This document shows positions 29,278-56,460 of a stretch of DNA of 64,000 bases, one piece after another (the stretch's first letter is position 1; each line of letters opens with the position of its first letter). The notes under the pieces are model-generated. The model made no database searches, was not told the DNA's origin, and worked only from the letters and a program-made list of their open reading frames with translations. A program made the position numbers and the translations under genes. Source of the stretch: Torpedo marmorata (Eukaryota); the NCBI GenBank assembly GCA_977017645.1, contig OZ360226.1:55552001-55616000 (forward strand). Direction: 5' to 3'.

Positions 29278-31531
29278 TGTAGCGACTTAGTTCAATAAAA
29301 TAGTCGCTTGGAGGCTAAGTGAGGCGTTTGTCTGCGACGCGTTTCTTGAATGAATCGGTAACGAAGCCCAAATGAATTTTCTTAAACAGTCTTTATTAAC
29401 AGACACAAAAGGGTTAACGTTTGTAGTATCATTCAATATCAATAGCAAAAAACTACTGTAGAAGAAAGTAACGTTCTAGCGAAATACCGATTAATCATAA
29501 CATGTAACGTGTAACGTTCTAAGGTCCGTGTAACGGTCAACAGAAATTATCTTTCTTTTTTAAATCTCTTTATTAATTCCATAAAATCATGGATATAACA
29601 GTTCATTCACTATATACGTTTACAGGAAAAAAAAGCAAAGAAAAGCATTATCACATGTTCCATTAATCCATCCATAACAAGAGTATACATTACAGATATA
29701 TATCAATTTTTTTTTCTTTACAATTTAGTATTATAATACCAATAGGTATAAAAAGAACCAAGCCACAAAAAAAAAGATAATATAGTAATTTCATCATAAT
29801 ACATTTTTTTATAAAAGCTAAAGCAATCTAAACTAGCCTACCACCTACCCCCACCCCAGAATTGCACTGACCTGTAGAAATAATATAACTTCAAATCATG
29901 AGGAATCATAAACTCTGATAATAGTCGATAAAGGAACCCCAAATATTAGTAAATTTTAGGTTTAATTTAATATTTGAACATCTAATTTTTTCTAATGTTA
30001 AATAGGACATTAAACTTGATAGCCAATCTTCATAGATAGGAGGATTACCATCCTTCCATTTTAGCAAGATCTGTCACCTTGCAACCAGAGAAGAAAAAGC
30101 AATCACATGTTTTTGATTATTAGTAAGATCATGATTACTAGGATCATTTATACCAAATATTGCTATAAATGGATTTGGATCTAATTGAGTAGTTAAAACC
30201 AAAGAAAGAGTACAAAAAATTGTGTTCCAAAAGTCTAACTAACTTAGGGCACAACCAAAACATGTGAAATAATGTAGCTTCATGAACATTACATCTATCA
30301 CACATAGATGATATATTTGATCAAAATTTAGCCAGTAAAGATTTTGAGTAATGAGCTCTGTGAACTACTTTGAATTGAATTAATTTATGTCTTGCACATA
30401 ATGAAGAGGTATGGATAAGGTCCAAAATATTGGACCACACTGAAGGTGAAAAAATTTCTAAAAAATCTTTCCCAAGCCTCCTTTATTTTATCCACATGCT
30501 GTATCACATTTCCTTTTAAAAGGTTATAAAATACTGACAGGAGTGATAGTAAAAACCTTTTCTATGATTACTAACTTTAAATCTAAAGGAAACTCCAATC
30601 TCAAGGAATTTATAAAATTCCTAACTTGAAAGTATCTAAAATAATTGTTTCTAGATAAGTTATACTTATTAACCATCTGTTCAAAAGTAATGAAATTTGA
30701 ATCTATAAACAAGTTTTTAAATGAACATACACCGTGATCTTGCCAAATCTGGAACCCTCTATCCCCACGAGCTGAGGTAAAAAAGGTATTGAAATTTATT
30801 GTACTATCAAGCAAGAAATTAAGGAAATTATTTGCTTTTCTAAATTGGAACCATATTTTTAACGTTTGTTTAACTATCTTGTTATTAGAAATTTTGGAAT
30901 ATTTAAAGGGTGAAGGCATTCCTAATATAGATACTAACGAATGTTTACCTATAACCTTCATTTCTGATTTCATCCATTTAAATCTTTCTTGATAATTCTT
31001 AAAATGTATCCATATATTAATGTTAGCAGCCCAATAATAATTCCTGAAATTAGATAAAGCAAAACCACCCTGTGGTTTGTCATTCTGTAGTACTTCCTTT
31101 ATTACTCTTGGTCTTTTACCATTCCAAATAAAAGACGAAATTAAAGAGTCTATTTGATCAAAAAATACTTTAGGGAGAAATACTGGAAGTGCTCAGAATA
31201 CATACAATGACAGAAATTATCGACGCCTAACTCACCCTCCGATCACCCAACTGACGATGCGGGCTAACGAACTTACTTTTGAACGCGTGCAAAACCCCGC
31301 GCATGCTCATTGTAGAACGCGCTGGCCCTGGCTTCAACCGCTCGCTACCGAGCCGAGCGTGCATGCGTTAACCCAATCCATGGCGCATGTGCACCGGTGG
31401 ACATGCCGGCCCCGGCTGAAGTCGCTGCCACCGGGGATGAGCCAACCGCGCATGCGCGGCCACGGGAAGAGGCCCACAGACCCCGGAACACCGCCGACGC
31501 CCGCGGCCGAACCACAGGTAAGGCTCTTACA
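29278..31531 (-). repeat. 3' LTR of BEL copy 1, split by an L1 insertion
   Basis: Colinear with 37054-37679 once 29552-31221 is removed. Short purine tract (minus-strand agggaccgg) abuts it. Confidence 0.92.
29552..31209 (-). mobile_element. 5'-truncated L1 of a different family inserted in the LTR
   Basis: 12-bp TSD acagaaattatc at 29540-29551 and 31210-31221. ORF 30524-30973 has YFRYFQVR. AATAAA plus an A-rich tail. Confidence 0.9.
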
Positions 31532-32165
31532 CCGGTCCCTAATTATTATAATGAGACGTAATGTCTCTAATAATAATTACATAATTATACAGTCAATCAT
31601 AAATAACAATTAACCACGTAACATTTGAACATGACGCAGGTCTTCTTTCTTCATTTGTAATAAGGCCAGAGGTTACCAGCACATAGCCTTGAAAAGATAT
31701 TTACTACCACTCTGCAGTCTGTGTAGTGGGCAAAGTACAAAACGCATAACAAATAAAGTCAGTTTGGACTTCTCAAAGTTCCTCCGTCTTCTGTAGAATC
31801 CATGAGTTAAAACATCGACCAGTAAACCTCAGATCTTCCTCAGACAGAATAGACACAGCTTTCCTTTTGAGTTTCACATGAGGTACATCTTCAGCATGTC
31901 GTTTGGCTTTCTTCCTTTCTTCAGCATTCTGCTTCTCATTGTAAGAATTTTAACTTTTAGAACCAGATTTTGAAGATTAATTTGATCCTCTCGATTTTAA
32001 TAAACGAGTCTCTTTAACTCTCCCTGCAACAGGTTTGCTCATCTTTTTCTTTCTTTTCTGCAGTTGATCATAGATAAGGTAAGATTCAAATGACATTAGT
32101 TCTTCAAACTCATCAACAGCCACAGCATTTGTAGAATCCTTCTGTAAAGAAGTAGACTGGTTCCA

Positions 32166-32689
32166 CTTATAGCTCCTACAAATCTCTTTAACTAGAACTG
32201 GAGCCTTTTCAACCTCTCTGGCTTCTATTGTCTTTTTCTGCAATTGCAGATCCAATTTTGCAACTTCCAATTCAGCCTCAGTTTCTGACTGTTTATTTTG
32301 AAGCCTTTTATTAGATTCTTTCTCTGCATTCAATTCTTTCGATAGGAAAGTAATTCTCTCGTTATCTTCTGAGAAGTTACTAACTTGATCTTGAATGAAA
32401 AGGTCATGTGATGTATTGGTACTTCTGCTTTCAGCCCTGCTGTAGTAATATCTCTTTCTTTGTGCATCGTTATTAGCTGGGCCTTCAAGATACATTCTTG
32501 ATTGTTTTCTGTAGTCAGCTGTCTTGTGTTATTAACCAATGGCTTGTTCTCTTTCAAAAGGTGAATCTTCTCATCCAACTGTATGCATCTTGATAAAACT
32601 GAATCTCTTTCCTCGATAACTGTATTAATTTCTTCAGCAGTTATTCTTTTCTTCCATTCTCTGGCTTTGCGAATTCTATCTACAATTAA
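32166..32689 (-). pseudogene. MIPOL1: Captured MIPOL1-like coiled-coil segments in BEL copy 1
   Basis: LIVDRIRKAREWKKRITAEEINTVIEERDSVLSRC..NNTRQLTTENNQECILKAQL and ITFLSKELNAEKESNKRLQNK..LQLQKKTIEAREVEKAPVLVKEI resemble two regions of vertebrate MIPOL1 as I recall it. Confidence 0.8.
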
Positions 32690-32864
32690 ATCTTTCTGGT
32701 TACTGTTTTCATGATTATCCAATATTTCCAAGTCCCCTTTCAACATTTTGTTCTCTGAAGGCAGTTGCACCAGTTTTGCAGTAATTTGTTTTAGTTCTGC
32801 CTCAGATTCAATTACACAGGAATAATCACCAACAGTATTTGCAGCATCTTCTAATACATCATTT

Positions 32865-35552
32865 TCATCTATTGTTGATAAAAAATAATTTCTTCTTTAC
32901 TGGTCTAGATGCTCTTGATTTATTTTCATCAGTAAGATTTTCTAAGAACTGTTTGTATACTTTTGAAGGTTTTTGATTGTTATCAAGGCGTTCAGGAAAG
33001 TCTGTATTAAACGGTTGTTTCAATGGTTCGTTGAGTTTCACAACAGATATCATATTGACACTTCTTGTTGACTGCTTCTGAGCAATATTATTCTTTCTTT
33101 CTAATAGTCCATTGATTGTCCATCCAAGCATAATTTTAATAGCGTAAAGTCCATCTCTCACACTCGGTATTACTTTTATTGGTTCCAGAGCCTTTGGTAC
33201 ATCAAAATCAATTAGCATCTCTATCTCAGAGCTATTTTCCGGTATATAAACCTTCCTCAGATACAACCACTGATTCACATCACTTTGATGTGGGATGTTT
33301 CCTTTATGCACAGGCATAGTCTTTTGTGTATATATGCTAGGAAGATCACAAAAATCGTCGCTGTGTATTCCAGCAACCTCTAACCCTGAAACGATGTTAG
33401 TTTCAATGACCTTTTCTTGTCCCATGGTTTTCAATAGAATCCTTGACTTTTTTCCTTCAAGATTAACCCTTTTCATAAGCCCCATAATGCAAAACGACAC
33501 AGTGCTTCCTGGGTCAAGAAATGCATGTGTACGTACCGTTGCATTTCCGTTCTTGGTCTTGACTTGTACAGGCACTATTGAGAGTTTGCAGTTATCCTTA
33601 CCAGCCCCAGTAAGACCACTTGTCTGAACCGAGGCAATAACACTGTTTTCTGCTGCTTCTTTTGTTTCTGTTTGCTCCTTTTCCAGTTCCTTGTTCCTTT
33701 GGTGAATATGCAGTATTCTAGGATGCTTCAAATTGCATATGTTACAGCTAAATCACTTCTTGCAGTTTTTACTGATGTGCCCTTTACAGCCAAAACATAC
33801 TCCATTTTCCTTTAAGAAAGCGATCTTCTCATTATGTTCCTTCTTTTCCAATTGTGAACACATTTCCAAAGCATGCTCATCTTTACAGAACAAACAGTTT
33901 TTTTCTCAGCAGGCAAACTCTACTTCTCTATCTGTAATTGATACAGCAGTAGCAAAGGTGCTTCCCTTTATTTTTTGATGAGGCTGTGACTTGGACTTCT
34001 TTACGTCTTCGATCACTGTTGGAGTGTCGATATTTCCAAATACTGGTACAGTTGCGATCCGCACGTGCCATTCAAGGAACCACAATATCCTCAAAGGTAG
34101 CATCCTTTCTATATTTTGTCTGAAGTTTACGAACTCTTGTTCTCCACAAATCCTTCAGCCTGTAAGGCAATTTGCTTGTGATGATTAACATATTGGAAGG
34201 TAAGTTAAGCTCACGCATGCGGTCGATATCTTCCATGGCATTACCACGTCCTCTTAAAAAGAGGGCGTATGCTTGTAAAGCCTTTATATCCTACGATTTT
34301 ATTGATGACCATGAAATAACCTTCTCTATATAAGCCATTGCAATTTTATGCTCATTGCCAAAATGATCTTGTAGTAATGCCTTTGCCTTAGTGAATCCCC
34401 TTTCTGGGTCCATATGCAGGCAACTCCTCACCAGTTCCTGTGGCTGTTGTCCAGTGTACTGTTCCAGGTAATAAAGGCGATCTATGGCATTTTTATTCTT
34501 ACTTTCGATATTATGTTCAAAAGATTTAATGAATGCTTGATACTGAAGTAGATCTCTGTTTAAAAACTTGAATCTCCTTCTTGGTTAAGGAATAGAGACC
34601 TTGTTGCTGCACTAATAAAGCAGTAATTTCATTTTGTTTTGCCATGATTGACAATATATTGTCTTGTTCACCATGGCTTAAAGCCGGTACTGCAGCTGAA
34701 AACATCACATGTCCTTCTTCACCCTGATTTTTATTACCTGACGGAAGTGAATAGAATTCTGGCTGGATAGATTGAAATCCGCTCATATCTCTGACCACTG
34801 GGGTCATTATTGGGGTTTGAGATTTGGCACCACCTTGCCTTAACCTGGCTTGTTCGGGTCCATACACGTCTCGTAACCGTAACACTGGCTCTTCTTTGGT
34901 ATTAAATATTTTCTTTTTCTGTTGTCCTTCCTCAAAACCTGACTCCAAAACGTGAGATGCTTTAGATAATTTACTTCAAGCACCAGATACCTCTGAGCCT
35001 TCTAGTACCCTCGACTTGGACTCCTTAACAGCTATTTTTGTTTCTCAGTTCCAGTTGCTCCTTTTGCCTCCTTAGCTGCTTCCTTAGCTGCTCCTCTTTC
35101 TTCCTTAGCTGCTCCGCTTCTCTTCGTAGCTGTTCTTCCTGCTCTTCCTCTAGTTCTTCTAAGGCATATTTATCGTTAAGCCATTCTTGTTCTGCTTCAA
35201 AAGTGGCCATTTCAGCCCGAACTTTTACACGTGTAGATTCAGTACTTGAAACACTGGAGCTTGCTCTAGAACTCCTCTTGCTTCTCCTGCTACCAATATT
35301 AGATGCACTATCACCTGGTCATATATCATCCTCTATTTCAGATGTCACATTAATATCTGACTCCTTTTCAAATTTGAGTCATACATCCTCTTCTCTTTCG
35401 TCCTCTTCACCGACATTTTGTGACACATCTTTAGCCATTTCCGTACCACTGACTCGAGAATCATCTGACGTCATCTGCAGTGCTTTCGCGGAGTCTTTAC
35501 TTTCATCAACCAAAGCTGCCTCTTCTTTTTTAATTGCCAGCTTCAGTCTATC
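32865..35552 (-). pseudogene. BEL Gag (DUF1759-like), zinc knuckles and aspartic protease, degenerate
   Basis: ORFs 35025-35210, 34526-34948, 33906-34103 and 32865-33731 (LSIVPVQV, AFLDPGS, LGWTING). Confidence 0.88.
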
Positions 35553-36610
35553 GACAATCAGTGAAGATTGGTAAGAACTTCTCCTCCACAATCTCCATCA
35601 GTACCGGAGCACCACAGGGCTGTGTTCTTAGCCCCCTGCTCTACTCACTTTACACCTACTACTGGGTGGCTCGGTACGACAATAACACCATCTTCAAATT
35701 TATCGACTATACCACGGTAGTGGGTTGTATAAAGGAAGGGGATGAGTCAGCATACAGGATGGAGATTGAAAACTTGGCTGAATGGTGCACCAACAACAAC
35801 CTTGCACTCAATGTCACCAAAACTAAGGAGCTGATTGTTGACTTCAGGAAAGGAAAACCAGAGGTAGATAATCCAGTGATCATTGGGGGATCAGAGGTGG
35901 AGAGGGTGAGCAAATTTAGGTTCTTGGGAGTTACTATCTTGAAGGATCTTTCCTGGACCCAACATACCAATGGCATCGTGAAGAAAGCACGTCAGCGCCT
36001 CTACTTCCTCAGGAGTTTGCGGTTTGGCAAATTTCTACAGAGGTGTGGTGGAAAGTATGCTGACCAGCTGCATCATGATCTGGTATGGGAACACCAATAC
36101 CCCTGAGTGTAGAGCCCTCCAAAAGGTAGTGGACACAGCCCAGGACATTACAGGCAAAACCCTCCCCACTATTGAGTACATCTACAGGAAACGCTGCCGT
36201 CAGAGGGCATCAGCAATGATCAAAGACCCACACAACCCAGCACACACTCTGTTCTCACTGCTGCCATCAGGAAAGAGGTATAGGTGCCACAAGACTCGCA
36301 CCACCAGGTTCAGGAACAGCTGCTACCCCTCTACCATTAGAATCCTCAACAACAAAGTAAATCAGAGACTCATTTAAGGACTCTTACTTGTGCATTTTAT
36401 TGATTTTATTTGTTCTCTCTGTATTACACAGTCAGTTTGTTTACATTCATTATCTGTTTACAGTTCTTTTGTTTGTTTACATGTTTACGCTGTGTACAGT
36501 TTATTTTTGCACCACCAATTAGTGGTAATTCTGCCGCGCCCGAAGGAAAAAGGAATCTCAGGGTTGTATGTGATGTCATGTGTGTACTCTGACAATAAAT
36601 CTGAAATCTG
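35553..36610 (+). mobile_element. Rex1 5'-truncated copy inserted in the BEL gag N-terminus
   Basis: ORFs 35534-36106 ([15 protein letters not shown]) and 36024-36377. Tail aataaatctgaaatctg. Confidence 0.92.
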
Positions 36611-37053
36611 AGAGCGCTTTTGTCACCTTTTGTATCTAGCCCCTGTTGGCGCAGTTCTTTCATAAGATCTGCCAGGTTTCGATACGTTGTGACTTAGCGC
36701 AGACTCCTGAAGCAGTGGCAGCTATTTCGCCCGTATCCATCTCGATGCCGAGTTCCCAGCACAGAAACACAAGCAAACTGTACTGTTATCAGCAAGCAAA
36801 ACTCCACCGCAGCATCTGTAATTTATATCACTAATTTGCAAGAAATGGCTTTACCAACGTGTCAACAAAATCATCTTCTAACAGATTAGAAGTTTCAAAC
36901 TCCTTTTCTGGCCACTACTCAGGCCGATGGATATGGATTACAAACTGCAAAGCAACTCCGTATTTCTAAGATGGCCACCGTATTGCTTTCAATACAATTC
37001 AATTTCCCCTTAAAGCAGTCCAAATTTTCCAATAAAAATTTCTGTCGACTAAT

Positions 37054-37679
37054 TGTAGCGACTTTGTTCAATAAAATAGTTGCTTGGAGGCTAAGTGAGG
37101 CATTTGTCTGATGTGTTTCTTGAATGAATCGGTAACGAAGCCCAAATGAATTTTCTTAAACAGTCTTTATTAACAGACACAAAAGGGCTAAAGTCTGTAG
37201 TATCGTTCAATATCAATAGCAAAAAACGACTGTAGAAGACAGTAACGTTCTAGCGATATACCGATTAATCATAACATGTAATGTGTAACGTTCTAAGGTC
37301 CGTGTAACGTTCTAACGTCCATGTAACGGTCAACAGAAATTATCGACGCCTAACTTACCCTCCTCAGATCGCCCAACTGATGACGCGGGCTAACAAACCT
37401 ACTTTTGAACGCACGCAAACCTCCGCGCATGCTCATTGTAGAATGTGCTGGCCCTGGCACCAACCGCTCGCTGTCGGCACCAAGCCGAGCGCGCACGCGT
37501 CAACACAGTCCATGGTGCATGCGCACCGGTGAACATGCCGGCCCCGGCTGAAGTCACTGCCACCGGGGACGAGCCAACCGCGCATGCGCGGCCATGGGAA
37601 GAGGCCCACAGACCCTGGGACACCGCCGACGCCTGCGGCCAAACCACAGGTAAGGAACGACGAGCCTTTGGCTCTTACA
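37054..37679 (-). repeat. 5' LTR of BEL copy 1
   Basis: 626 bp with TG..CA ends, a CpG-rich U3 and internal ~18-bp tandem units (gtaacgttctaaggtcc). Confidence 0.92.
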
Positions 37680-38952: not shown

Positions 38953-39280
38953 TAAACTGTGGACATTCCCTGGATAGTTTATAATGCATGAGTAGCCCTC
39001 CTTAACAAGGAGGCAAGACTATCCATAGAACTCCAAGTGGTCTTGTATAATTTACAAAACTTCCCCACCTCTACTCCCCTTGTAGTAAAGACCAACATTC
39101 CATTGCCTTCCAAATTCATTGATAGAGTCCCATACTATCCTTGTGTTACATACACAGAGGCACTCGCATCTGACTGCTCCACAGCCTTCTGTAATCTCTC
39201 TTCTATTCTTCCCAACAAATTAGATAAGATTACATTATAGTCTGTCTTTGAAACTTTTGGCCATTCACATATCCCATTTA

Positions 39281-41805
39281 CAGTGCCCTCAATAATGTTT
39301 GGGACAAAGTCACTTTTTTCCTTTATTTGCCCCTGTGCTCCACAGTTTTAAATTTGTAATCAAACCATTCACATGTGATTAAAGTGCACATTCCAAATTT
39401 TATTCAAGGTTATTTGTATACATTTTGGTTTGACTATGTAGAAATTACAGCACTTTTTATACATAGTTCCCCCATTTCAGGGCACCATAATGTTTGGGAC
39501 ATTTGGCTTTACAGGTGTTTGTGAATACTCAGGTATGTTCAATTGCTTCATTTGTGCAGGTGCAGTATAAGAGAGCTAGGCTTGCTTCTAAGCTTTTGAT
39601 CACCTTTGGAGTCACAATGGCGGCGCTGCCGGAGCCGCTGTAGCGGCAGCGCTGCCGCTGGTGCAGACCCGCGGGGAGCGAGGGAGTGGAGATGCAGTGC
39701 TCCCGCGGGGTCCAGCTGCCCAGTCGACTGCTGTCAGCTCCGCACGGGCTTTAAACGGCCCGTTGAGGGAGCCGACGGTGGTTTTATTTATGATCCCGTG
39801 ACTGCGGGGTCTGCGCCCAAGATGGCCGCGCCTATTATCGGCAGCAGCCACAAGGGGTTGCAGACTCCGGGGAAGTGGAGGACTGGAGCAGGGCACCAGA
39901 GGATGGGAAAATCACCCCCCCCCCACCCCGCTCTGAGAAGGAGAAACGAAAGATATGACCCACAGGACGGTGACCACGACGGCGGACCAGTGAGGGGCTC
40001 TGAGGCTGAGGGACCAGTGCACGCGGCGGGCTGCTGGCGACTCGAAGCGAGTAACCCGCGGAAACTGTGGGCTGCTGGAGACTGCTGTCGGGAGACTTGC
40101 GCCGGGCTAGAGACTGGCTCGAAGTGGCTGGAGGAATACCAGGTATCGGAACCGGGATGCGAGGGGGTGCCGAGGGCGCCGAATGGTTCCTGACCGTGTC
40201 GGAGGTTCGGATCTGGAGCTCGTGTTGCTGATGGTTTTGACTGGAATCTGTGTGGCTGCGGAGGCTGCGGAAGTGCATCTACGGACACTCAGTGACTCTG
40301 GGGGGACTCCCTTTTGCTTTTCTTTCTCTGACTGTAAGTCTGACTGTAAGGAATGTTAGAGGCATTTAGGCAATTTTTTCTGGTGGCGAATCTGTCTGCC
40401 TTGCAGCAGGAAAAAAGAAATTTCATGTAATATGACACTGTCTTATTACTATGATAATAAATTGAATCTTGAATCTTGTAGTTGCCATGTTTCAACATGA
40501 GGACCAGAGTTGAGCCAATAAAAGTCAAAGAAGCCATTTTGAGGCTGAAAAACAAGAATAAAACAGTAAGAGATATTGCCCAAACTTTAGGATTAGCAAA
40601 ATCAACTGTTTGGAACATCATTAAGAAGAAAGAGCGTACTGGTGAGCTCAGTAATCACAAAGAGAATGGTAAGCAAGGAAGACTTCCACTGCTGATGACA
40701 GAAGAATTCTCATCATAATGAAGAAAAATCCCCAAATGCCCGTCTGACAGATCAGAAACACTCTTCAAGAGGCAGATGTCGATGTGTCAATGACTACTCT
40801 TCGCAGAAGACTTCATGAACAGAAATACAGAGGCTACACTGCAAGATGCAACCACTGGTGAGCCATAAAAACAGGATGGCCAGATTACAGTTTGCCAAGA
40901 AGCATTTTAAAGAGCCTATAGAATTCTGGAAAAAATGTCTTGTGGACAGATGAGACAACGATTAACCTGTATCTGAGTGATGGCAAGAGCCAAGTGTGGA
41001 GGCGTAAAGGAACTGCTCAAGATCCAAAGCATCCCACCTCATCTGTGAAACATGGTGGTGGGGGTGTTATAGCCTCGGCATGTATGGCTGCCACAGGTAC
41101 TGGCTCACTTATCCTCATTGATTTAACTGCTGATGGCAGTAGCAAAATGAATTCTGAGGTGTATAGAAACATCTTATCTGCTCAAGTTCGAGCAAATACT
41201 TCCAAATGCATTGGACGGTACTTCATCCCACAGCAAGTCAATGATATCAAACATATTTCTAAAGCCACAAAGGAGTTTTTCAAAGCTAAAAACTCGAAAA
41301 TGCTTGAATGGCCAAGTCATTCAATTGAAAATTCAATTGAGCATGCATTCCATATGCTGAAGAGAAAACTTAAGGGGACAAGCCCCCGAAACAAGCAGTA
41401 GCTGAAGATGGCTGCAGTAGAGGCCTGGTAGAGCATCATCAGAGAAGATACTCAGCACCTGGTTATGTCAATGAATCATAGACTCAAGCAGTCATTGCAT
41501 GCAATGGATATGCAACAAAGTATTAAACATGACTACTTTAAGTTGCATACCATTGCTATTACAGATTTTCGTGTTTTACTTATATTATGGTTGAAGTATG
41601 GTTACCTGAAATGAGGGTACCATGTACCAAAAGTACTGTATTTTCTGCATGGTCAAACCAAAATGTACACATATACCCTTTAATGAAATGTGGAATGTGC
41701 ATTTTAATCACATGTGAATTGTTTGATTATAAATTTAAAACCGTGGAGGACAGGTGCAAATAAATGAAAAAAGTGTCTTTGTCCCAAATATTAAAAAGGA
41801 CACTG
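39281..41805 (+). mobile_element. Tc1/mariner transposon (long IR/DR-type TIRs), transposase decayed
   Basis: TA|CAGTG...CACTG|TA ends and ~200-bp TIRs. HTH RDIAQTLGLAKSTVWNII (40482-40718). WTDET, VKHGGG and EWPSHS motifs (40940-41401). Confidence 0.93.
39617..40477 (+). mobile_element. GC-rich non-coding retroposon with a Rex1-like 3' tail (copy 1), inserted in Tc1
   Basis: Colinear with 53821-54673 and 58027-58660. Ends with aataaa(ttgaatc)n. Confidence 0.85.
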
Positions 41806-41869
41806 TATATCCCTTCATTCTTCACCACAAGTTACTTTCTGATCTAGCTCCTTATCTGGTTCCAATACA

Positions 41870-42150
41870 CTCAGTGTCTTCATCTAAATAATTGACATTC
41901 ACTTGTTACAGCAAGCCAACCTCAGAATAACCCATTCATTCCGACCCCGTGTTTTCTGTTAGTTTGACTGTCCTCTGTCCACATGAATATTTTACTCTCA
42001 ACGCATTTTGCATGGCAACTTGTTGATACCTTTTGGAAATTTAACATACTGTGTCTACTTATTCCCCTTTATTGATCATTATTCTTCAAAGAACTCTAAC
42101 AAATGTATCAAAATGCATTTCCCTTCCTTATATCCATGTTGACCTGTTTA
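41870..42150 (-). mobile_element. Old CR1 remnant
   Basis: Degenerate minus-strand QHG...NLLEFFE...FQK RT-like sequence. Confidence 0.45.
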
Positions 42151-42878
42151 GTTTTCCTCAGATCTTATAGTGATGTTAATCGAATATTAACTTGAAAATT
42201 AAGATTTTTTTTTAAATAATAGGAATGCTAAGGACAACATGCTCTTTGTCAACGTAAATGGTGGAATTGTGTGAATCAACCATCAAGTCATATTTACAAG
42301 TTGTGATATATTTTTAATCTTCAGCTTCTCGGCCAGGTTACATTACACTAATAATACAATATTCCAATAGCATGTGCCCTAATATTGTTTGCTTCCTTAG
42401 TTATAAGATGGAAAGAAGCAAATAATGAAACAGAAACAATGACAGATGATTGATTCTGTTTTGTATTGGTCGCTGATATATTAATATATTTTAGTTACTG
42501 GATATTTAGTTAGATCATGGAATCTCTTTTATTAAAAAAGCAAACAAATATCAACCATTGGCTGGGGAAAGAAATGAGGTTGATTCTTCTATTATCTTTC
42601 ATCTGAACTGTAAAATGCAAAGTATTGCAGGTTCAAAGCAAGTACAGACACAGAGAAACAAACTAGAAAGCATGAAATAAAAATGTAGGAAGTGAAAATG
42701 AAAATACGAAGGAGAAGATAAAGAATATAATGCAGAGAAGAAAGAATTATATTGACTAATACAAAAAATTCTCTTCTTGCACCATCCATAGTCACAAAAG
42801 AGTTAAATAATTTTAAATGTTATCATTGCTGAAATTAGTAGTTGACGCCTGGCTTAAATAGGAATCGCTCATATAATA

Positions 42879-43107
42879 AAAAAACACAAATGCTGGAGAA
42901 ACTCAGCAGGTCAAACAGTGTATTTTATGTAGCAAAGGTAGAAATACATAACCGACGTTTCGGGCTTGAGCCTTTCATCAAAGCCCGAAACGTCGGTTAT
43001 GTATTTCTACCTTTGCTACATAAAAGACACTGTTTGACCTGTTGAGTTTCTCCAGCATTTGTGTTTTTTACTTCAACCACGGTGTCTACAGATTTTCGTG
43101 TTTTACT
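42879..43107. mobile_element. Palindromic Penelope 3'-end insertion
   Basis: 88-bp arms (42880-42967 and 42981-43068) with 2 mismatches. TSD tcgct(c/t)atataat at 42865-42877 and 43108-43120. Matches the 3' end of the 50372 Penelope. Confidence 0.88.
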
Positions 43108-43524
43108 TCGCTTATATAATAGGTTGGGGTTAGAATTTAGATTAGTTGCAGATTTTTAAAAAAATGTTATCATTGTTAGATAGGCAAACATGGCAGTACA
43201 ACAGTATCTGCTATGGAGAAATTGGACAAATAATCAGTTTATCTGTTCTTGTCATGTTGATTGAGAGTAGAATGTTAGCCGTTGCAGCTCCCTACATGTC
43301 TTCATATTACATCACAGATCTTTGACAGTCACCTGAAATGATGGATTGGACATCAATGTAATGTTTCCTTTGAAGGTCAGTCTCTACATGAAAGTAATAC
43401 TTTGTCTTAAAACATTGTGGCGAATCCTGGAAAAGACCTTGAATCTATAAGCTTCAGAACAAGCAAGTGTCCATTCAACAAATATATCTGAAGAATACAG
43501 TGCTTTAGCAATCCTTCCTCTTTT

Positions 43525-43778
43525 AAAGGTAAAGGTAAAAAAAAAAGGTAAAGGTTCCATTATTGTCACGTAATACTACATTTAGAATGTAACATTCATG
43601 AAATTCTTTAATTTTTGTCTACCGTAAGGCAGACAGAGGGTCGCTACTTTGTCCAGCGCCCCTCACAGAAACCTACAGCACCTGGTGTTCTTTGGTGGTC
43701 TCCCCTCCAAGTACTGACCAGTCCTGTGCCTGCTTAGCTTCTGAGATCAGACAATCCCAGTCGTATTCAGGCTATTGG
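43525..43778 (-). mobile_element. 5S rRNA-derived SINE (SINE3) with a Rex1-like tail
   Basis: 43669-43778 is 5S-like (gtctgatctcagaagctaagcagg...agtacttggaggggagacc...ggtgctgtaggttt), followed by a 3' tail and (acctt/ttacc)n repeats. Confidence 0.85.
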
Positions 43779-44609
43779 TGCTGAAGTGAAGGGAATAAGA
43801 TGAAGACATGAAAAGAAATTCAAGAACTGGAGCAAGATACAAAAAAACTGACATATAAAAGCAAAAGAAAAAAATGTCACTTTCTTGAAAAAATACAAAA
43901 ATGTTTTTTCTGACTCCACTAGGTAGTCAAAGGGAAGTTCAACTGTGGGGTTGAAGTGGGAGTTGGGTATGTTACTGACAGGAAAGTACTTCTTCAGCTG
44001 TAGAGAGGTAACAGGGAATGGGACTTACTACATCATACTGACATGAAGCCTGCATGGACATGTTGAACCACATGGTCTGTCCATGCCATAAGGTTTCTGT
44101 GGTTTTGTGAACAGCACAATAAGAACTGCATCGGATACCCCTAAAATTGAAAGGATTTAAAAATGTTTCCCAACCTGCCATACATTTCAACAAAAGCTGC
44201 CGCCTGGTGTGTCTGACAGGCTCAATTATTGCCTCAGTTTGCAACATACCTAATGGCATTACTTTGTGTAAAATCTTTAGTGCTGTAAATCAGTGGTACA
44301 CTTGACATTGTGACTTGTTAATTAATCTTGTTAGACTCTCTGATTGCTTTACTTTATTGTCTCTCATGGAAAGAGCCATGGAATAGACCTTTCACCAGTT
44401 TTGCCCTGCATTACACAACATACTTTGTATTTCGAGTTTAAGTTCAAGATTTGACAGGCTTCAGAATAAGGATATCGAACTGCTGAGTAATGTTAATTTT
44501 AACAAGATTATGCAAGTTGTAACTGTTGCCTTAGGCAAAATAAGGACATTGTTATTAGGATACCTTTGATGAATAATGCATTTTAACTCTGAGATCTACA
44601 GTGGCAGAT

Positions 44610-45805
44610 TCGGTACGACAATAACACCATCTAAAAATTTGCCGACGATACTACAGTAGTGGGTTGTATAAATGATACGCCCATCAATAACTCCAGAAGA
44701 CTGGAAGTTGCATAAGAACTGAAAGGCTTTTATTAGTTACAGAATGGAGCTACATTCGAGCTGATGATCTGTCCCGGACTGGGGGAGGAGTTGTGGCACT
44801 ATGGCCTTTATTCAAGGGGGTTTGTGGGAGAAGCCACCGGGACAGTCAGCAGGGCATGTCCAAACCTATCACCAGCCCACAATACATATACAGTGGTTTA
44901 CCACAATAAAGGAAGGGGATGAGTCAACATACAGGATGGAGATTGAAAACTTGGCTGAATGGTGCACCAACAACAACCTTGCACTCAATGTCACCAAAAC
45001 TAAGGAGCTGATTATTGACTTCAGGAAAGGAAAGCCAGAGGTATACAATCCAGTGATCATTGGGGGATCAGAGGTGGAGAGGGTGAACAAATTTAAGTTC
45101 TTGGGAATCAATATCTCGGAGGATCTTTCCTGGACCCAACACACCAATGGCATTGTGAAGAAAGCACGTCAGCACCTCTACTTCCTCAGGAGTTTGCGAA
45201 GGTTTGGTATGACACCAGAAACCCTGGCAAATTTCTACAGAGGTGTGGTGGAAAGTGTGCTGACCGGCTGCATCACGGTCTGGTATGGGAACACCAATAC
45301 CCCTTAGCGTAAAGCCCTCCAAAAGGTAGTGGACACAGCCCAGGACATCACAGGCAAAATCTTCTCCACTATTGAGTACATCTACAGGGAACGCTGCCGT
45401 CGGAGGGCAGCAGCAATCATCAAAGACCCACACCACCCAGCACACGCTCTGTTCTCACTGCTGCCATCAGGAAAGAGGTATAGGTGCCACAAGACTCGCA
45501 CCACCAGGTTCAGGAATGCTACCCCTCCACCATCAGACTCCTCAATGACAAACTCAATCAGAGACTCATTTAAGGACTCTTGTTCACTTTATTGATTTTC
45601 TTTTGTTCTCTCTGCATTGCACAGTCAGTTTGTTTACATTTGTTATCTGTTTACAGTTCTTTTATTTGTTTACATGTTCACGCTGTGTACAGTTTATTTT
45701 TTGCACTACCAATTAGTGGTAATTCTGCTGTGCCTGCAGGAAAAAGGAATCTCAGGGTTGTATGTGATGTCATGTATGTACTCTGACAATAAATCTGAAA
45801 TCTGA
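44610..45805 (+). mobile_element. Rex1 5'-truncated copy interrupted by a solo LTR
   Basis: [11 protein letters not shown] at ~44638-44670 continues as KEGDES after ~44908. Same 3' UTR as the 35553 copy. Confidence 0.9.
44673..44905 (-). mobile_element. 233-bp solo LTR (Gypsy-like)
   Basis: TG..CA ends, perfect 5-bp TSD ataaa (44668-44672 and 44906-44910) and a minus-strand AATAAA. Confidence 0.85.
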
Positions 45806-46195
45806 GATTCCTGTGGTAGTGAGGAATAAGTTTCCAGTGACCTCTGAATTTGGTAGTTGGTGAGGACTGTTGTAAAAGTGGCAGTGGACACGTTGTAAAA
45901 TGCAATCTATTGACTTCCATATTTAACCTCCGCATTATTAGGATTTGTGTGAGTAACCCCTCGGGAAGTGACAAGTTGTCAATGTTGTGATCTGTAAGTG
46001 AGTTCGGTGAGGAATAACGTGCTGAATTGGGTGCACGGGGCGTGTGAGTGAAGTATCTGCATTGTTCACTTGTATTGCTGCAAAGTTCTCCTTCAGTTAT
46101 GCAGCAGCATCACAATGCCTCATGCACATCTGTGTCTCATTTTCCTTGCAGTTGGCACTATGCCTGGTTAATAGTTAGCACAACAGTTCTTATTT

Positions 46196-46447
46196 ATTTA
46201 TTTAGACATACAGCACGATAACAGGCCATTTCAGCCCAGGAGCCCGTGCTGCCCAATTACACCCAATTGTCCTACAACCCGCAGTACATTTCGAACGGTG
46301 GGAGGAATCCGGAGCCTCTGGAGGAAACCCACGCAGACACGGGGAGCACATACAAGCGTCTTACAGACAGCATGGGATTTGAACCCCGATCCCGATCGCT
46401 GGCGCTGTAACAGCGTTGCGCTAACCGCTATGCTAATCATGCCACCC
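46196..46447 (-). mobile_element. tRNA-derived V-SINE
   Basis: Reverse complement aligns with 56208-56460. Confidence 0.85.
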
Positions 46448-47136
46448 CATAACTGACCAGAACAGCAAATAAGGGGCTTCGTACTTGGAGATCATCTGTG
46501 TCGCTGGCCCCTGACACCTCTCCAGCACACACATTTGCTGACAGAAATTAAATCCAATTCAAATCCAGGGCGACAAAAGCCATTGCTTCAGAGGTTGGAT
46601 AGCAGTCCAACGCCATGGAAAACGAGCTCAGTTTCCTGCATTGTGTGGCTTCTGTTGCAAGAATTTGCAGTGCAGCAGCAACAGAAAGTGGGCTCTGCAG
46701 TATTAATCTGACTCACTTATGTCATCGACTGATTCCCCGACCACATTGTACCACACTTCTACCACAACCCAACCTCCCAAACCCCACCCCTACCCTTGCA
46801 TTAATGGCGCTAGCCAACGTCATTACACCAGTCCTTTAATCCAAAAAAAAAGTAGATTTAATAATATTGATATGCATTCATATTTTTCCTAGAACCTTTT
46901 GGACCATCTAATGTTTATCATGGTTGAAAATAACAAATACCAACAAAAGCAGATGATCATTTTATCTGTCACTAATGTTTATGAAAGCTGGTGTATGGGA
47001 GAAGGACTTGTGAACATTCTGACAAATGAATGTAAACATTGCATATCCATTTACTTTTTCTCCATTCAAATTGAAGCAGAATTTTAATTTCAGTAATATT
47101 GGGCAATATTGCAGATAATGTCCTTGGGGAACACAA

Positions 47137-47400
47137 TGGCATAGGCAGTCGATCAGCTGTCTCTCAATGTCACAGCTGGGTTTAATTCTGACCTGCGTGC
47201 TGTCTGTTTGGAGTTTGCACGTTCTCCCTGTAACTTTTCCTCCCACATCTCAAACATGAGGGAATTGGTAGGTCATTTGGCCAGTATAAAATTGCCCATC
47301 AGGGGGAGATGAGTCGAAGAATCTGAGTGAAATTTATGAAAATTGGATTGATGGTCATGCAGACTCGATGGCCAAATGACCTCTTTCCAGCTGCATCTCT
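47137..47400 (+). mobile_element. Old V-SINE
   Basis: V domain ctgtctgtttggagtttgcacgttctccctg. Confidence 0.65.
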
Positions 47401-48589
47401 CTGTGGCTGTACAACACAATATCTTGCAATTCCTCTTTGTATTAATTGTTGCATTAATGACAATACTTACATTTAAAAAGAAGCCTCCAAGTAGGATGTT
47501 ATGTTATTTCAAAAATGCTGCATGAAATTATTGGAAAAACAGAAATCATCACACATTTTGGATTCAAACTGTACAAACAATCTTTTTAAAAGGAGATAGT
47601 TTTTTTTGTCCCAGCCACACACAATAAGATTTCAAATGCAGGATAAATGAGCTGTCATAAGACATAGATTTCTGCATATTGTTAGATATTGAGGTGTGTT
47701 TTTAACATCCATTGTTATCCCCTTTTTATCTCATACTTTTACACTTCATTCCACATTAATTGTATCCTCAGAGTCCTGATAATATTTTCCTGCATTTTTA
47801 CTTCTGTTCAGTGGTCTGTAACTTTGATATTTATACTTCTGCACTGAGCTGCACCATTTTCATTAATATGTTTTCTTATTTAGTAGTTTATAAAGCAACA
47901 ATTCAGCCCCTCCTGATTGCCCACTTTTCAGTTAAACTAAGGTTGACTTGCATCTAAACTTTACGGATCATGATCCTATAACCTTTAATGAGCTCACATA
48001 ATTGTTTACTCAGAGCTATCATTAGGCTGATAAGAAGAAATGATTGGATTGTCATTTCTGTTTCTCTGGAAGCTGTTGTTTCTGATTCCTTAATACCATA
48101 AGTTGGAAGGCAGTGGGGAAGAGATCAAAGGGCAGCTGAGTGAATTGAGCTGCCATCGAAGTTTGGTGAGTTTGATTAAGGCATGATTGGAAAATCACTG
48201 AGCCAATCACAGGAATTTAAAGGAAATTGGAGGACATCCTGGGACAGCTTAGACTAATTTCCAATATGTTGCTTCAAAACAATTGTTAGATTGAAAACAA
48301 TGTTTTCTGATGCACGTCTGACTTTTAAAAAAAAAATGCATGTGTACAACGCTCACTGGGAAATGTCCAGTCAAGTGATGGAAACAAACCAAACCATCAT
48401 ATTTCATTTCCTAGATTAGTGCATTTTCAATTGTACAGAATTGAAATAAATAGTGCCACAATGTTTATTTTCTAGGTTTATTTATTTTCTTAATTACCAA
48501 TTTCCTTGGCTATATGTGTTGGAATGTTGTTAAATTATACTTAAAATGAGTATTTCATAATCTTGACTTATAACTAACTGCACGGCTAG

Positions 48590-50363
48590 CAGGGCTGGCA
48601 CTACCATTAGGTCAACTAGGCAGCCGCCTAGGGCGCAGACCTCAGAGGGGCGCTGGCTAGGAAGGGGGAGCTGCTGACCCACCTGCAGAACCTCATCAAG
48701 GCCGAGCCCAGGAGCCGGCTGACCACCCCGTGCGCCAGCTCGCCATGACCGCCTATACCTTCCTGCTCAGGCTGGGGCCCCCACTCAACAAGTCCTACGT
48801 CACCGAGCTCATCAAGATTGCCCGGACAGCATGGTGGGTCTGCAGGCCGGGGCGAGCGGGCTGGAGGCAGCGGAGGAGAAGGCCGGGGACGCCGCATATC
48901 AGGAGACCCACTCCACTCTCCAGGGCCTGCTAAGCGAGATCCTCCTCCGAGAGCCGAGCCCTGACGAGCTCCAGGCCATCTTCAAGCACATCGAGGGCTG
49001 GGTTGTCTCCCCCAAGGAGCAGGAGTGGGCTATATAAGTCATCCGCAGGCTGCTGGCACTCTACCTGGAGAAGGCGAGCGGCCGGTGTCAGGCGGAGTTC
49101 GGACACGAGGGCCCCATGGTGGGCCGACTGGCTCCGTGCCTCGCCAACCCGGCGCCGGCTAGCATCAGCGCCCTCTTCCACATCCAGCTGCGCTGCCGGG
49201 GCGTGTCCGAGGGCCGGCCCGATGAGCTGGTGGAGCACCTGAAAGCCGCCGGCACCTGGCTCCGCCGCCCCACTCCTCCTGCAGCTCTGCTCCGAGCTGG
49301 CGAAAGCTGCGTGCAGGCACATCCCTCGCCAGCAGATCGGCCCTCTCCTCTTCACTCTCTTCGAGGGGCTGGACGACCACTACCCCGGCTGCTCCAGAGC
49401 TGCGTCCACCATCATAAACCCCGTCGTCCCGTCCTGCGGCTCCGCTCTCCGGGGCCAGGTCTTAGACATTCTCAAGGCACTGCCCGTGTACCTGCAGTGG
49501 ACGGCGGGAGAGCAGGTCAGACTCTCCATCATCCACTTCATCTCCGTGCAGGCTACACACAACACAGCCGAGGCGGTCTCCTGCCTCCTCTTCTCACCGC
49601 TGCCCTTTGACGCCAACACCCGCCACATCTGGCACTCGCTGGCTGGCGACACTGGCATGGCCACGGCCGTCATCCACCTGCTGCTCAACACCTTGGACGA
49701 GCGCTTGTGCCTGGAGCCGGAGGCCGGAGCCCCGCCACGCCGCGGTGCTGGCGTCTGCCTGGCCCTGGAGCCCCTGAGCGTTATCTGCGCCCTGAAGGAG
49801 ATGCTGTCGAACCGGGAGTGTACCGCGGCCGTCAGCAGCCTTTACCTACGGCTCTTCTGCGCTCTGCTGCTGAAGCTCGGCGCCAGCGCCAGGGCACACC
49901 CCGAGGCGTGCACGGTGTCGCCCGACGCCCGATGCTGCTTGGCAGAGGTGCTGCGGACGCTCCTGGGCACCGGCAGTGGTGGCGTCCCGCTTGCACGAAG
50001 CGGGGGGCTGGTCCGCCCTGATGGACCCCGAGCGCCACCATGAGGGGGTGGCCGCTCTGGCCGTGGCCTCACATGCCGGAGCCCACCTGACCATGATCAT
50101 CCACCTCGTTTCCTGCCTCCTGCCCCGCTTGGCTGCCGACTCCGAGCAGCCGATGCTGGCTGCCTTTCTGGCCGTGCCCCCGGGCCACCCTGTCGCCTCC
50201 GACCTCCACCTGACCGACGCACTAGTCGAGAGCCTCCTATACGGCGCACGTTGAACATCACATCAGGTATTGCACCAACCGCTCAGCCCGGTCAGCACCG
50301 CCCCCCCCCCACACCCCGTGCTCAGCCCGGCCTAGGGCGCAAAATAGTCTGGCACTGGCCCTG
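48590..50363. mobile_element. Non-autonomous hAT-type DNA transposon carrying MROH1-like cargo
   Basis: Perfect 8-bp TSD acggctag (48582-48589 and 50364-50371). Termini CAGGGC...GCCCTG. Subterminal gcctagggcgc near both ends. No transposase. Confidence 0.88.
48655..50254 (+). pseudogene. MROH1: Intronless, frameshifted MROH1 (maestro HEAT-like repeat)-like fragment
   Basis: RKGELLTHLQNLIKAEP, PVRQLAMTAYTFL, LQAIFKHIEGWVVSPKEQE, AVSCLLFSPLPFDANTRHIWHSLA, PLSVICALKEML..LYLRLFCALLL and GGWSALM..HHEGVAALA occur in the order I recall for MROH1. Confidence 0.82.
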
Positions 50364-50371
50364 ACGGCTAG

Positions 50372-51453
50372 GTCTTCCAATGCAGATCATCTGAAATGTC
50401 CGCCTTCTTCCACAAACATGACTTCCCCTCCATCACCATCAATTCAGCACACACCCACATCTCCTCAATTTCCCGCTCATCAGCCCTGGCCCCCTCTGCC
50501 CCCAGACGCAACAAACACAGGATTCCGCTTGTCCTTACCTACCACCCCACCAGCCTCCGCATCCAACACATTATCCTTCATAATTTCCAGCACTTACAAC
50601 ATAATTCCACTACCAGACACATCTTCCCCTCTATGCCTTCTGTAGGGACCGCTCCCGCTGTGACTCCCTCATGCACTCATCCCTCCCATTCAGTCGTCGT
50701 CCCCCCAGGTGGCCGCAGGAAGTGCAACACTTGCGCCCACACCTCTTCCCTCACCACAGTTCGGGGCCCCAAACAGGCCTTTCAAGTGAAGCAACACTTC
50801 ACTTGTATCCACGGGAGTGATTTACTGCATCCAATGCACCCTTTGTGGCCTTCTCTATATTGGAGAGACTGGGCGCAGACTGGGAGATCGCTTCGCTGAT
50901 TACCTTCGCTCTGTCCGCACCAGTGACAGGGATCTCCCAGTGGCCAACCATTTCAATTCTGCGTCCCACTCCAATACTCACATGTCTGTCCATGGCCTCA
51001 TGTACTATCTCACCAAGACCACCTGTAAATTGGACAAACAACACTTGATTTTCTGTCTGGGCACTCTCCAGTGGAGGGCATTAACATCGACTTCTCCAGT
51101 TTCTGCTCACCTACTCTCCATTCTCCTTCCCTTTACCTTGTCTTCTTTCCCTCAGCTCTTCACCCCCTTCCCTCTCTATTCACCGAGCCATCCCCCCCTG
51201 CTTGCTGCTGTGCCTTGCTCCCTTCTTCACCTATTACCTCCTGCCTTTGGGACCGCGCTCCTTCCCCCACCATTCCCCACCTTACCTTTTTGTTTGAACG
51301 CCTGCCAACATTTTCCCATACATTGATGAAGGGTTCAAGCCCGAAACGTTGGTTATGTATCTTTATTTTTGCTATATAAAGTACACTGTTTGACCTGCTG
51401 AGTTTCTCCAGCATTGTGTTTTTACTTTAACCACAGTGTCTGCAGATTTTGTG
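50372..51453 (+). mobile_element. Penelope-like element, 5'-truncated (RT C-terminus + GIY-YIG endonuclease + 3' end)
   Basis: RIPLVLTYHP, IYCIQCTLCGLLYIGETGRRLGDRF and PVANHFN. Hammerhead-like tgatgaagggttcaagcccgaaacg at ~51324. Confidence 0.92.
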
Positions 51454-51549
51454 CAAGGCTATTAATGGATTAGACATAGAATGGAACATAAATGTCAAAT
51501 AGTTGGATTGCCAATTTATGTATTGCTTCAGAAGGATAAGCTGCTCAGT

Positions 51550-51998
51550 TACAGTTTTGGTCACCTAACTACATGAAAGGTATCAATAAGATAGAAAGAG
51601 TGCAGAGAAGATTTACTATGATGTTGCCCAGACTTCAGGAACTGATTTACAGGGAAAGGTTAAACAGGTTAGGACTTTATTCCCTGGAGCGAAGAAGAAT
51701 GAGGGGAGAGTTGATAGAGATATTTAAAATTATGAGGAGAAACGATAGTAAATGTAGGTAGGCTTTTTCTACTGAGGGTAGGTGAGATACAAACCAGAGG
51801 ACATGGTTTAAGGGTGAAAGGGGAAAAGTTTAGGGGGAATATCAGTGGGAATTTCTTCACACAGCGAGTGGTGGGAGTGTGGAACGAGCTGCCAGCTGAA
51901 GTGGTGAATGCGTGCTCATTTTTAACATTTAAGAAGAATTTGGACAGGTGCATGGATGGGAGGGTATAGAGGGCTATGGACTGGGTGCAGGTCAGTGG
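51550..51998 (+). mobile_element. CR1 3' fragment
   Basis: IERVQRRFTMML..RLNRLGLYSLERRRMRG and TRGH motifs. Confidence 0.88.
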
Positions 51999-53820
51999 AA
52001 CACTTAGGGCAGGCTTACCAAAGCAATGCGAGAGATGAACATTCACTTAATGACCTCACATGTTGTGAAAACTTTCAACATCGTCATATTATTGAGGAAG
52101 CACCTTCATAAGCTGCCTTAGTTAAGGTTTCATCATAGGACTTCAGTCATAACTTATTTAAGCCAATTTATGCCAGCACATTGCTCAAAATTGCTAAGAT
52201 TATCTGGACCATTTCATATGACATTTCCAAAAGAGCAGTTCTCTAATGTGTGCTAGATTTGCATCCAGAAGTTTAAGGCCAGGATGAGAAAAATTATTTG
52301 ACTTGAGCATGCCTGAAATTTTGGAGTTGAGCTGTACTTTTCTTAATGTGTTTAGTTGAGGCAAGAATTTTTAGTGAGACTGCATTGTACTTAACCAAGT
52401 TTCTGTCTGTTTTTGTTTGCTTCAAATGTTGGACTGGAATGCTGGATTGTTTTTCATAAAAAAGGATAATCTTCTGCAAAATAAAATCAATGAAATAAAA
52501 GTAGCAAAGATATATAGAGCTGAGTGAGGCATCATGCGGAAACAGTAGCCTTTTTACGGTCATTGCTGATTGATTGGTGGTGTTTCCATTTATTCTATAC
52601 TGATACACGTATAGAATTATATTGATTCTAAAGAAATACAGGTAGTACCTTTCACAAGCTCAGCTTGTCACTACTGTTTTAAAGCCAGTAAAATATTTTG
52701 GAAGTGTCAGCCCTTGTAATGAAGAAATTCTGGTAGTTTGTGTGTCGTAAATCTGCACAAACGCCAGTGTGATGATGATCAGATAACCTATCTTTGTAAT
52801 GTTGATTGAAGGATAAATATGAACAAAACTCCTTTCTTAATGGGAAGGATCATTTTTGTTCACGTTACAGGTAGCACTCCCCCTGTGCTCCTCGTTAGTG
52901 TCAGCTTTTTTTTTGTAGTGAAGTGTTGCATCTTAATTTAATTTAACATTCAGGTGAAATTGCTGGCCGAGCACAGGATATTCAGCCCAATTGTTTAATG
53001 TCAACATTTATACCTCTCTCAAGTCGACCCCGTCAGCCTTCGTTGAATCACGTAAACTAATTCTGCTGTCTCTTTCACCTGAAATAATAAAGTAAAGCTT
53101 TTCTTTCAAAGCTTCCTATTTGCCTCAGTTGCTCCCTGTGATATTAACTAACATGTCGTCAGCACTTTTACATTCTATTTCAGGTAAACAGGCTTCCAAG
53201 AGTAAATTGGAAAACCAGTGTAAATTTTAATATAGCTTCTGCACAATCCAAAAAAATTGAAGCGATATGTGTCATTAATTCTATTAACACGCTGCACTTG
53301 CAGGGAGGCTAAATTCAAAAGTAATTTGTGGAAATGATACTTCAATGAGCAAATATTCAGCCTGTGAAAGAGGCTCTCTTGGGAGATGGTGGAAGCAATT
53401 AATATTGATTTATTCACGTTCAAATATGGCTTCATTCAGAAAGGAACAGAATGGGATGCAAGATATGGGTAATTTAGGATATAACATGGGATAAGGAGGG
53501 ATCAGTGATTCCCGAAGATCTCCACAATAGGACCTTCCTTGTATCACATATTGAGCCATTGAGAATTCTATATTTAGTCAAAAGCACGATATTGTTTGCA
53601 TTGTGTGACTGTGGGGAATGACAACAATTGAATTGAATGGCAACAACCTGTTAATGTCTCGTTGTTCCTGAAAATTAGTTGGTTTGATGAGAATGACCAG
53701 AAGATCCAGGATCTTTTAAAACATAAAAACAAGGCACCTCTAGACTGGAAATACAATCATCTTAAGACTGAGGTCCAAAGAAAAATATGTCACCTAAAGA
53801 TCTGAGAGTGCGTGGAAAGT

Positions 53821-54673: not shown

Positions 54674-54869
54674 GTGGTTGACCTGTGTTGATTCTTCACC
54701 ATTGTTAATTGCAGCTCCAGCCCAAACACATACAGATGCACCCAGTTAAGAGGAAAGAAAAGTGGAGAGTTTAGCAAGAGCAATGGATCAGTTAGCATTT
54801 CAAAGATCTCTTCCACTGAGACTCCATTTGATGTGAGTTTGTTTGATTACATTACACAACTTCGGTGTT

Positions 54870-56060: not shown

Positions 56061-56207
56061 GCCACACGACAAGTTCAAGTTTTTATCATCTGATTGTATA
56101 AGTGCAGCTGGACGAAACAGCGTTCTTCATCCTTCGGTGCAAAAACATGCAAACATACCAAATAAAATAAATAAACACAATATTTTATTATAACAAACAA
56201 TAATATT

Positions 56208-56460
56208 AGGGTGGCACAGTTGGCGTAGCGGTTAGCGCAACGCCTTTACAGCGCCAGCGATCGGGACCAGGGTTCGAATCCTGCGCCATCTGTAAGGAGT
56301 TTGTACGTTCTCCCTGTGTCTGCGTGGGTTTTCCCTGAGGGCTCCGGTTTCCTCCCACCGTTCAAAACGTACCGGGAGTTGTAGGTTAATTGGGTGTAAA
56401 TTGGGCGGCACGGACTCATGGGCTGAAATGGCCTGTTACCATGCTGTATGTGTATGTCTA
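56208..56460 (+). mobile_element. tRNA-derived V-SINE
   Basis: A-box tggcgtagcgg, B-box ggttcgaatcc and the V domain. Confidence 0.88.

Follow-up and report, generated by a model that had tools for sequence, protein, structure and literature searches.

A probable circRNA-derived retrocopy of MIPOL1 within a BEL/Pao element amplified in rays

The stretch of Torpedo marmorata DNA analysed here, referred to throughout as the window (64,000 nucleotides; assembly GCA_977017645.1, contig OZ360226.1, positions 55,552,001 to 55,616,000 of the forward strand), contains the same chimeric structure at two sites, in which pieces of the host gene MIPOL1 lie inside an element with the features of the BEL/Pao group of LTR retrotransposons. 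Copy 1, in which both LTRs are retained, is made up as follows; coordinates are those of the window, and residue numbers here and below refer to isoform X1 of Narcine MIPOL1 (P0092).

37054-37679, minus strand: 5' LTR of copy 1, 626 bp, TG...CA.
35567-36613, plus strand: LINE that inserted later into the 5' part of the element, matching other LINE copies in the window.
33753-35600, minus strand: gag region, with stops and frameshifts; zinc knuckle at 33896.
32931-33752, minus strand: zinc knuckle and aspartic protease, with DPGS at 33515.
32693-32930, minus strand: linker between protease and MIPOL1, with a frame change inside.
32447-32692, minus strand: MIPOL1 segment A, residues 453-534, with two inferred exon junctions inside.
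32439-32447, minus strand: scrambled junction, codons Tyr-Tyr-Ser; inferred exon end after 32440, start of the upstream exon at 32439.
32181-32441, minus strand: MIPOL1 segment B, residues 295-381, which precedes segment A in the host gene.
31800-32117, minus strand: Elongin A-like second cargo, in the frame of segment B, with two internal stops.
29278-31531, minus strand: 3' LTR of copy 1, interrupted by a LINE fragment at about 29552-31209.

The LTR pair of copy 1 is identical at 539 of 582 aligned bases (92.6%; K2P 0.079), and its 5-bp flanks, alike at 4/5 bases, constitute a target-site duplication. The internal region amounts to about 4.5 kb when the LINE insertions are excluded. DPGS protease motifs and zinc knuckles are present in both copies; the DUF1759 match in the copy 1 gag is weak (E 0.019, below the Pfam cut-off), as is that of the DUF1758-type protease (E 0.047, likewise below the cut-off), for which the Atlas neighbours carry DUF1758 on 15-25% of their members and the protease frame of copy 2 lies nearest to DUF1758/Asp_protease clusters (0.92-0.94). 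Sequence resembling BEL elements presumably peters out near 32940 in copy 1, and from there the internal ORFs have been replaced by cargo rather than just interrupted: the motif patterns tried for reverse transcriptase, RNase H and the integrase core were found in none of three frames of either copy, and the DUF5641 tail has been deleted from copy 1. This anatomy identifies the element as a predicted non-autonomous BEL/Pao derivative, with gag and protease retained and cargo in the position of pol.

The remainder of the window is largely repetitive. The LINE fragment within the 3' LTR of copy 1 (29552-31209, minus strand) is flanked by a 12-bp target-site duplication, ends in a short A-rich tail and gave no Pfam match; we take it to be L1-like. 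One of the LINE copies that match the insertion at 35567-36613 (6832-7902) carries RVT_1 and ALKBH8_N. Positions 1-28000 and 39000-59000 consist mostly of nested LINE remains, with several RVT_1 frames, two of them accompanied by ALKBH8_N, and with AT-rich blocks that are repeated and 75-95% alike. A broken piece of MROH1 (Maestro HEAT repeats), probably a processed copy, occupies 48600-50250 on the plus strand with a 266-codon open stretch, and all five of its matches (5/5) are to cartilaginous fishes, the best to a sawfish at 53%.

Copy 2 is read in the same direction and extends past the end of the window.

62391-63998, minus strand: gag (DUF1759), zinc knuckles and protease.
61946-62390, minus strand: linker between protease and MIPOL1.
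61476-61931, minus strand: MIPOL1 cargo, segment A then segment B, in frame with gag.
61134-61470, minus strand: truncated Elongin A-like remnant followed by the C-terminal tail of a BEL integrase, with DUF5641 at 61238-61134.
60240-60862, minus strand: 3' LTR of copy 2, of a type other than that of copy 1; lower end approximate.

Here the Pfam matches exceed their cut-offs, both for DUF1759 (E 6e-7, 30 bits against 25.4) and for DUF5641 (E 4.6e-5, 24 bits against 23.1); the tail of copy 2 can be aligned to that of copy 1, and gave no match when queried alone against the PDB. Within the cargo, segment A occupies 61931-61629 and reaches the inferred exon end, and segment B occupies 61628-61476, with a 27-codon in-frame gap; the alignment to Narcine places residues 449-551 at 61943-61635 and residues 295-376 at 61628-61464. 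Silent-site difference between the two copies is 0.76 in gag, 0.58 in the protease and 0.33 in the cargo; together with the different LTRs, this higher divergence of gag and protease than of cargo suggests that the cargo cassette has passed between two element subfamilies.

Both MIPOL1 segments had been placed at 32166-32689 by an earlier, sequence-only reading of the window, and they were recovered there on the minus strand. Its assignment to MIPOL1 is borne out by word-based protein searches, in which every named match was MIPOL1, namely 5/5 among 439 candidates of length 149-476 and 6/6 among 1,769 candidates of length 477-2000 (best E 1.6e-33). In copy 1, segment A is identical to Narcine at 71/82 residues (86.6%) and segment B at 64/87 (73.6%), against 61-66 and 52-54 identities, respectively, for five other rays. 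Trees likewise group both segments with Narcine (97/97 for segment A, 99/95 for segment B), the placement of the long branches, segment A of copy 2 and segment B of copy 1, being less sure. These affinities identify the predicted donor as MIPOL1 of the electric-ray lineage. Since both segments group with Narcine and the MROH1 piece matches cartilaginous fishes only, the donor fits the host at class level, and transfer from a distant lineage is unsupported, the cargo and the second host-derived piece both pointing to cartilaginous fishes.

No annotated protein of fused or scrambled form was found, either at lengths of 149-2000 or in 35 matches among 1.84 billion representatives; ten of those 35 were checked by name, and nine proved to be MIPOL1 or hypothetical or partial MIPOL1-like proteins and one an uncharacterised lamprey protein. 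Repeats are usually masked before annotation, so this absence is weak evidence. A metagenome scan with Narcine MIPOL1 yielded 90 pattern matches and 0 confirmed relatives, and Pfam, which has no MIPOL1 model in the version used, assigned 0 families to that protein.

The order of the two segments in the element is the reverse of that in the host gene. The host order on which the sequence-only reading had relied, with the B region N-terminal to the A region in MIPOL1, proved correct for all 11 aligned MIPOL1 proteins (11/11), in which residues 295-381 precede residues 453-553; none has the order of the element, so the permutation is genuine, and copy 2 shows the same succession of A then B, as had also been claimed. 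Segment A aligns at 32692-32447, against 32689-32447 as first given, and the limits of segment B were revised: it starts at 32441, 75 nt earlier than the 32366 first proposed, and ends at 32181, the bases beyond (toward 32166) not being MIPOL1. With this earlier start, segments A and B abut. About 52 nt have been deleted directly before the junction in copy 1, and the two segments are thus in different frames there. The order is not explained by an internal repeat within MIPOL1, since self-alignment of three proteins returned the full-length self match only; the sole short repeat seen (E 0.006-0.04) sits within segment A.

That the cargo is intronless, as first described, also holds, for it crosses four inferred exon boundaries with no inserted sequence. 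All exon boundaries used here were deduced from annotated (predicted) protein isoforms and not from host gene DNA. Segment A spans boundaries after residues 487 and 522, the latter marked by isoforms that part there in 5/8 shark and ray species and the former by one catfish isoform pair that differs at residues 487-489. Segment B spans two more weakly marked boundaries, after residues 340 and 374, near which (about residues 341 and 375) partial bird models start.

The point at which the element passes from one MIPOL1 register to the other was located by scoring every codon against both registers, at a resolution of one codon. Copy 1 reads Tyr-Tyr-Ser-Arg-Ala-Glu-Ser at 32447-32427, with a CAG that starts at 32439. 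With each of the seven shark and ray proteins compared (7/7), copy 1 changes register at codon 0-1 and copy 2 between codons -1 and +1, no indel crossing the junction in copy 2; when Narcine alone is used, the best-scoring switch in copy 2 comes one codon earlier, with 1 base making the difference. On the donor side, isoforms skip or diverge directly after Tyr-Tyr (residue 553) in 5/8 multi-isoform species (Narcine, Hemitrygon, Hypanus, Mobula hypostoma and Pristiophorus), and the change from Ser to Arg after Tyr-Tyr in isoforms implies that the donor exon ends in AG, in phase 2. On the acceptor side, isoform pairs that differ solely by Ser 295 occur in 3/8 species (Narcine, Pristiophorus and Heterodontus), the remaining five (5/8) having Arg there and no one-residue pair. 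A tandem acceptor produces such a one-residue difference where the preceding exon ends in AG and the following one begins with CAG, and the pairs are read as the mark of an acceptor of this kind at Ser 295.

The inferred exon end and the inferred start of the upstream exon therefore coincide at one serine codon, both in phase 2, and the junction, as placed by these predicted boundaries, is of the back-splice type, an exon end joined to the start of an upstream exon. The sequence-only reading had suggested two alternatives, capture from a back-spliced circular RNA or two template-switch captures from mRNA, and had tied the first to a permutation point on exon boundaries; in the element, the change of register does not extend beyond the serine codon that both inferred boundaries share. 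A crude estimate puts the chance that two free breakpoints would both fall on exon boundaries at 2e-4 to 3e-3. Three further cargo ends that were examined (residue 453, residue 381 in copy 1 and the gap in copy 2) lie off the inferred boundaries. Both exon ends finish in AG, which leaves a 2-nt microhomology at the junction.

A circle closed at this junction would comprise 259 codons (777 nt), in frame and with no stop, and the cargo represents about 73% of it, both ends of the copied part lying within exons. Neither copy contains recognisable MIPOL1 sequence external to the predicted circle, in comparisons with the upstream and downstream parts of five proteins (best E 0.049, at protein level). 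There is no poly(A) tail, segment B continuing straight into the Elongin A-like cargo. A repeated copy of the circle, the rolling-circle signature that would prove circularity, is absent from the cargo.

The second host cargo, which follows directly on MIPOL1 and was missed by the sequence-only reading, resembles Elongin A at the level of predicted protein. It matches residues 426-499 of human Elongin A (PDB 8oev chain M) at E 2e-4, with a weak further match, colinear with the first, to residues 536-562 and about 35 residues absent between the two stretches; this assignment derives from one protein in one database. The linker that precedes MIPOL1 (32693-32930 in copy 1, 61946-62390 in copy 2) is about 80-150 codons long, gave no usable match in PDB, Pfam or Atlas, and could itself represent a third cargo.

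A single reading frame of 955 codons in copy 2 takes in gag, protease, linker, both cargoes and integrase tail; it is interrupted by five stops, none of them within MIPOL1. Across 321 cargo codons there are 0 stops in the face of 89 amino-acid differences from Narcine, where 5.2-7.5 stops would be expected, a test that is overstated because the copies share ancestry and Narcine stands in for the donor. The dN/dS ratio between the copies is 0.39 (0.26-0.56) for gag and 0.28 (0.19-0.41) for the protease region; for the cargo it is 0.69 (0.39-1.34), which is indistinguishable from neutral and thus does not demonstrate purifying selection on the cargo residues. It is conceivable, but unlikely, that the cargo has been kept readable for the making of a fusion of Gag, protease, scrambled MIPOL1 and Elongin A, so that a back-splice product would have become a working part of a polyprotein and been passed between two LTR subfamilies. 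An open cargo frame might also do no more than shield the RNA from decay.

Contigs of four public sequencing runs were aligned to 31700-33200 (1.5 kb) at 80% likeness, and related contigs were placed in all four (4/4): 14,849 of 36.1 million, 2,825 of 17.7 million, 203 of 0.53 million and 222 of 3.3 million, the two largest sets (14,849 and 2,825) coming from DNA runs and contig counts not being copy numbers. So many distinct contigs indicate a large element family. Part of the stretch occurs in 12 of the 15 listed runs (6 studies), none of which contains half of it or more or is catalogued as RNA. Runs X3 and X13 each hold one contig that crosses the junction, with 57 letters at the position of the copy 1 deletion, and that of X13 also extends into the Elongin A-like part; the RNA status of runs X11 and X13 is a guess, and contigs of this kind have no bearing on expression. 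No backward joint was seen among the 15 joints listed out of 255. The 196-nt deletion typical of copy 2 (window 32015-32212) recurs in run X1 as a joint and as loose ends, from which copy 2 appears to represent a deletion subfamily.

Taken together, the observations are most readily explained by a back-spliced MIPOL1 circle that entered a particle together with BEL/Pao RNA and was copied when the polymerase switched templates, an origin that we regard as likely. A MIPOL1 pre-mRNA of the electric-ray lineage would have been back-spliced, the Tyr-Tyr-(Ser) exon being joined to the upstream (Ser)-Arg-Ala-Glu exon, yielding a frame-preserving circle of some 777 nt (259 codons). This circular RNA would have been packaged into a BEL/Pao particle, where reverse transcriptase may have jumped to it partway through an exon, copied some 570 nt including the junction and then left it, the Elongin A-like piece being added through a further template switch. 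The cargo would thereby have replaced reverse transcriptase, RNase H and most of the integrase, leaving a putatively non-autonomous element that was moved by a helper and multiplied.

The same exact joining of a donor to an upstream acceptor is, however, predicted for a source that the sequence-only reading, whose back-splice option is otherwise supported, did not mention, namely a linear RNA in which an exon block is repeated, produced by tandem duplication within MIPOL1 or by trans-splicing of two pre-mRNAs; a 570-nt capture centred on the junction of such a template would also lack outside exons. We nevertheless consider a linear template of this kind quite unlikely, for no repeated block is present in the six Narcine isoforms or in those of seven further sharks and rays. 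In addition, junctions of this kind more commonly stem from back-splicing, and published tables include MIPOL1 circles of mammals. Two independent switches on linear MIPOL1 mRNA, joined via the shared AG, would make the match to splice sites coincidental. Capture by several switches is documented in the available text of Tan et al. 2016 (PMC5131818), at least one further switch, to the Elongin A-like RNA, occurred in this element, and AG is indeed common to both exon ends; the crude chance calculated above for both ends and the position of the three other examined cargo ends, none at an inferred boundary, nevertheless make this course highly improbable. Capture of two MIPOL1 pieces in exchanged order, either unspliced or genomic, followed by splicing of the element transcript, would likewise yield exact exon boundaries with the introns removed, but is very unlikely, since it calls for two captures with several introns each within a unit whose internal region is now so short, and no intron remnant was recognised at the cargo ends, although the unexplained linker may be one.

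With a back-spliced circle as the preferred template, the locus is interpreted as a probable circRNA-derived retrocopy within a BEL/Pao element that has multiplied in rays, and the element as a fossil record of a back-splice event. A junction of this type within a whole LTR element points to packaging and template switching as a route for circular RNAs that have no poly(A). In the available part of a 2026 bioRxiv catalogue of VGP genomes (10.64898/2026.06.26.734816), MIPOL1 is the first of the five most retrocopied parent genes in cartilaginous fishes; such lists are there put down to transcription bias and selective filtering, and circRNA has 0 mentions in that part. The element described here may explain why MIPOL1 heads the list, as one capture multiplied by a transposon and not as repeated retroposition or selection, and multiplication of a single capture in this way is a caution for retrocopy counts in general. 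No published account of the element, or of such a case in the lineage, was found in the open-access literature. Circles of Mipol1 appear in mouse and human tables of three published papers, which in the parts available do not give the exons; MIPOL1 is not mentioned in the text supplement files of PMC4897178, and coordinates of the mouse Mipol1 circle were not found in the supplement files of PMC8176118.

Compared with known systems, the element shares with BEL/Pao elements of fishes its TG...CA LTRs, the 5-bp target-site duplication, a DUF1759 gag, zinc knuckles, an aspartic protease and the DUF5641 tail, and differs from them in having host cargo instead of a recognised reverse transcriptase, RNase H and integrase core. 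It also resembles the LTR-mediated retroposition described by Tan et al. 2016 (PMC5131818), in which pieces of mRNA, including those of multi-gene cases, are captured inside LTR elements: in the text available, intronless mRNA pieces replace internal ORFs with both LTRs kept, the products are recopied non-autonomously, several parent genes may contribute to one element, and one case involves a BEL element (mosquito BEL18_AG). The word 'circular', by contrast, is absent from the available main text of that study; a review (PMC5408686) does, in its accessible part, connect circRNA-derived pseudogenes with LTR-mediated capture. Such pseudogenes were defined by Dong et al. 2016 (PMC4897178), who found 33 copies of circRFWD2 near LTR sequence in mouse, without settling the mechanism. 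Common to circRFWD2 and the ray element are a non-colinear exon-exon junction, the restriction to exons of the circle, the lack of a poly(A) tail, the presence in many copies and the adjoining LTR sequence, with MMERVK10C-int marked in the figure of that paper. The circRFWD2 circle was seen in RNA-seq, whereas that of the ray is predicted. For circRFWD2 the link to LTRs is an enrichment in the flanks, whereas the ray piece sits between gag-protease and integrase tail in a whole two-LTR element, and it further differs in belonging to a cartilaginous fish and to BEL/Pao, in being in frame and in being accompanied by a second cargo.
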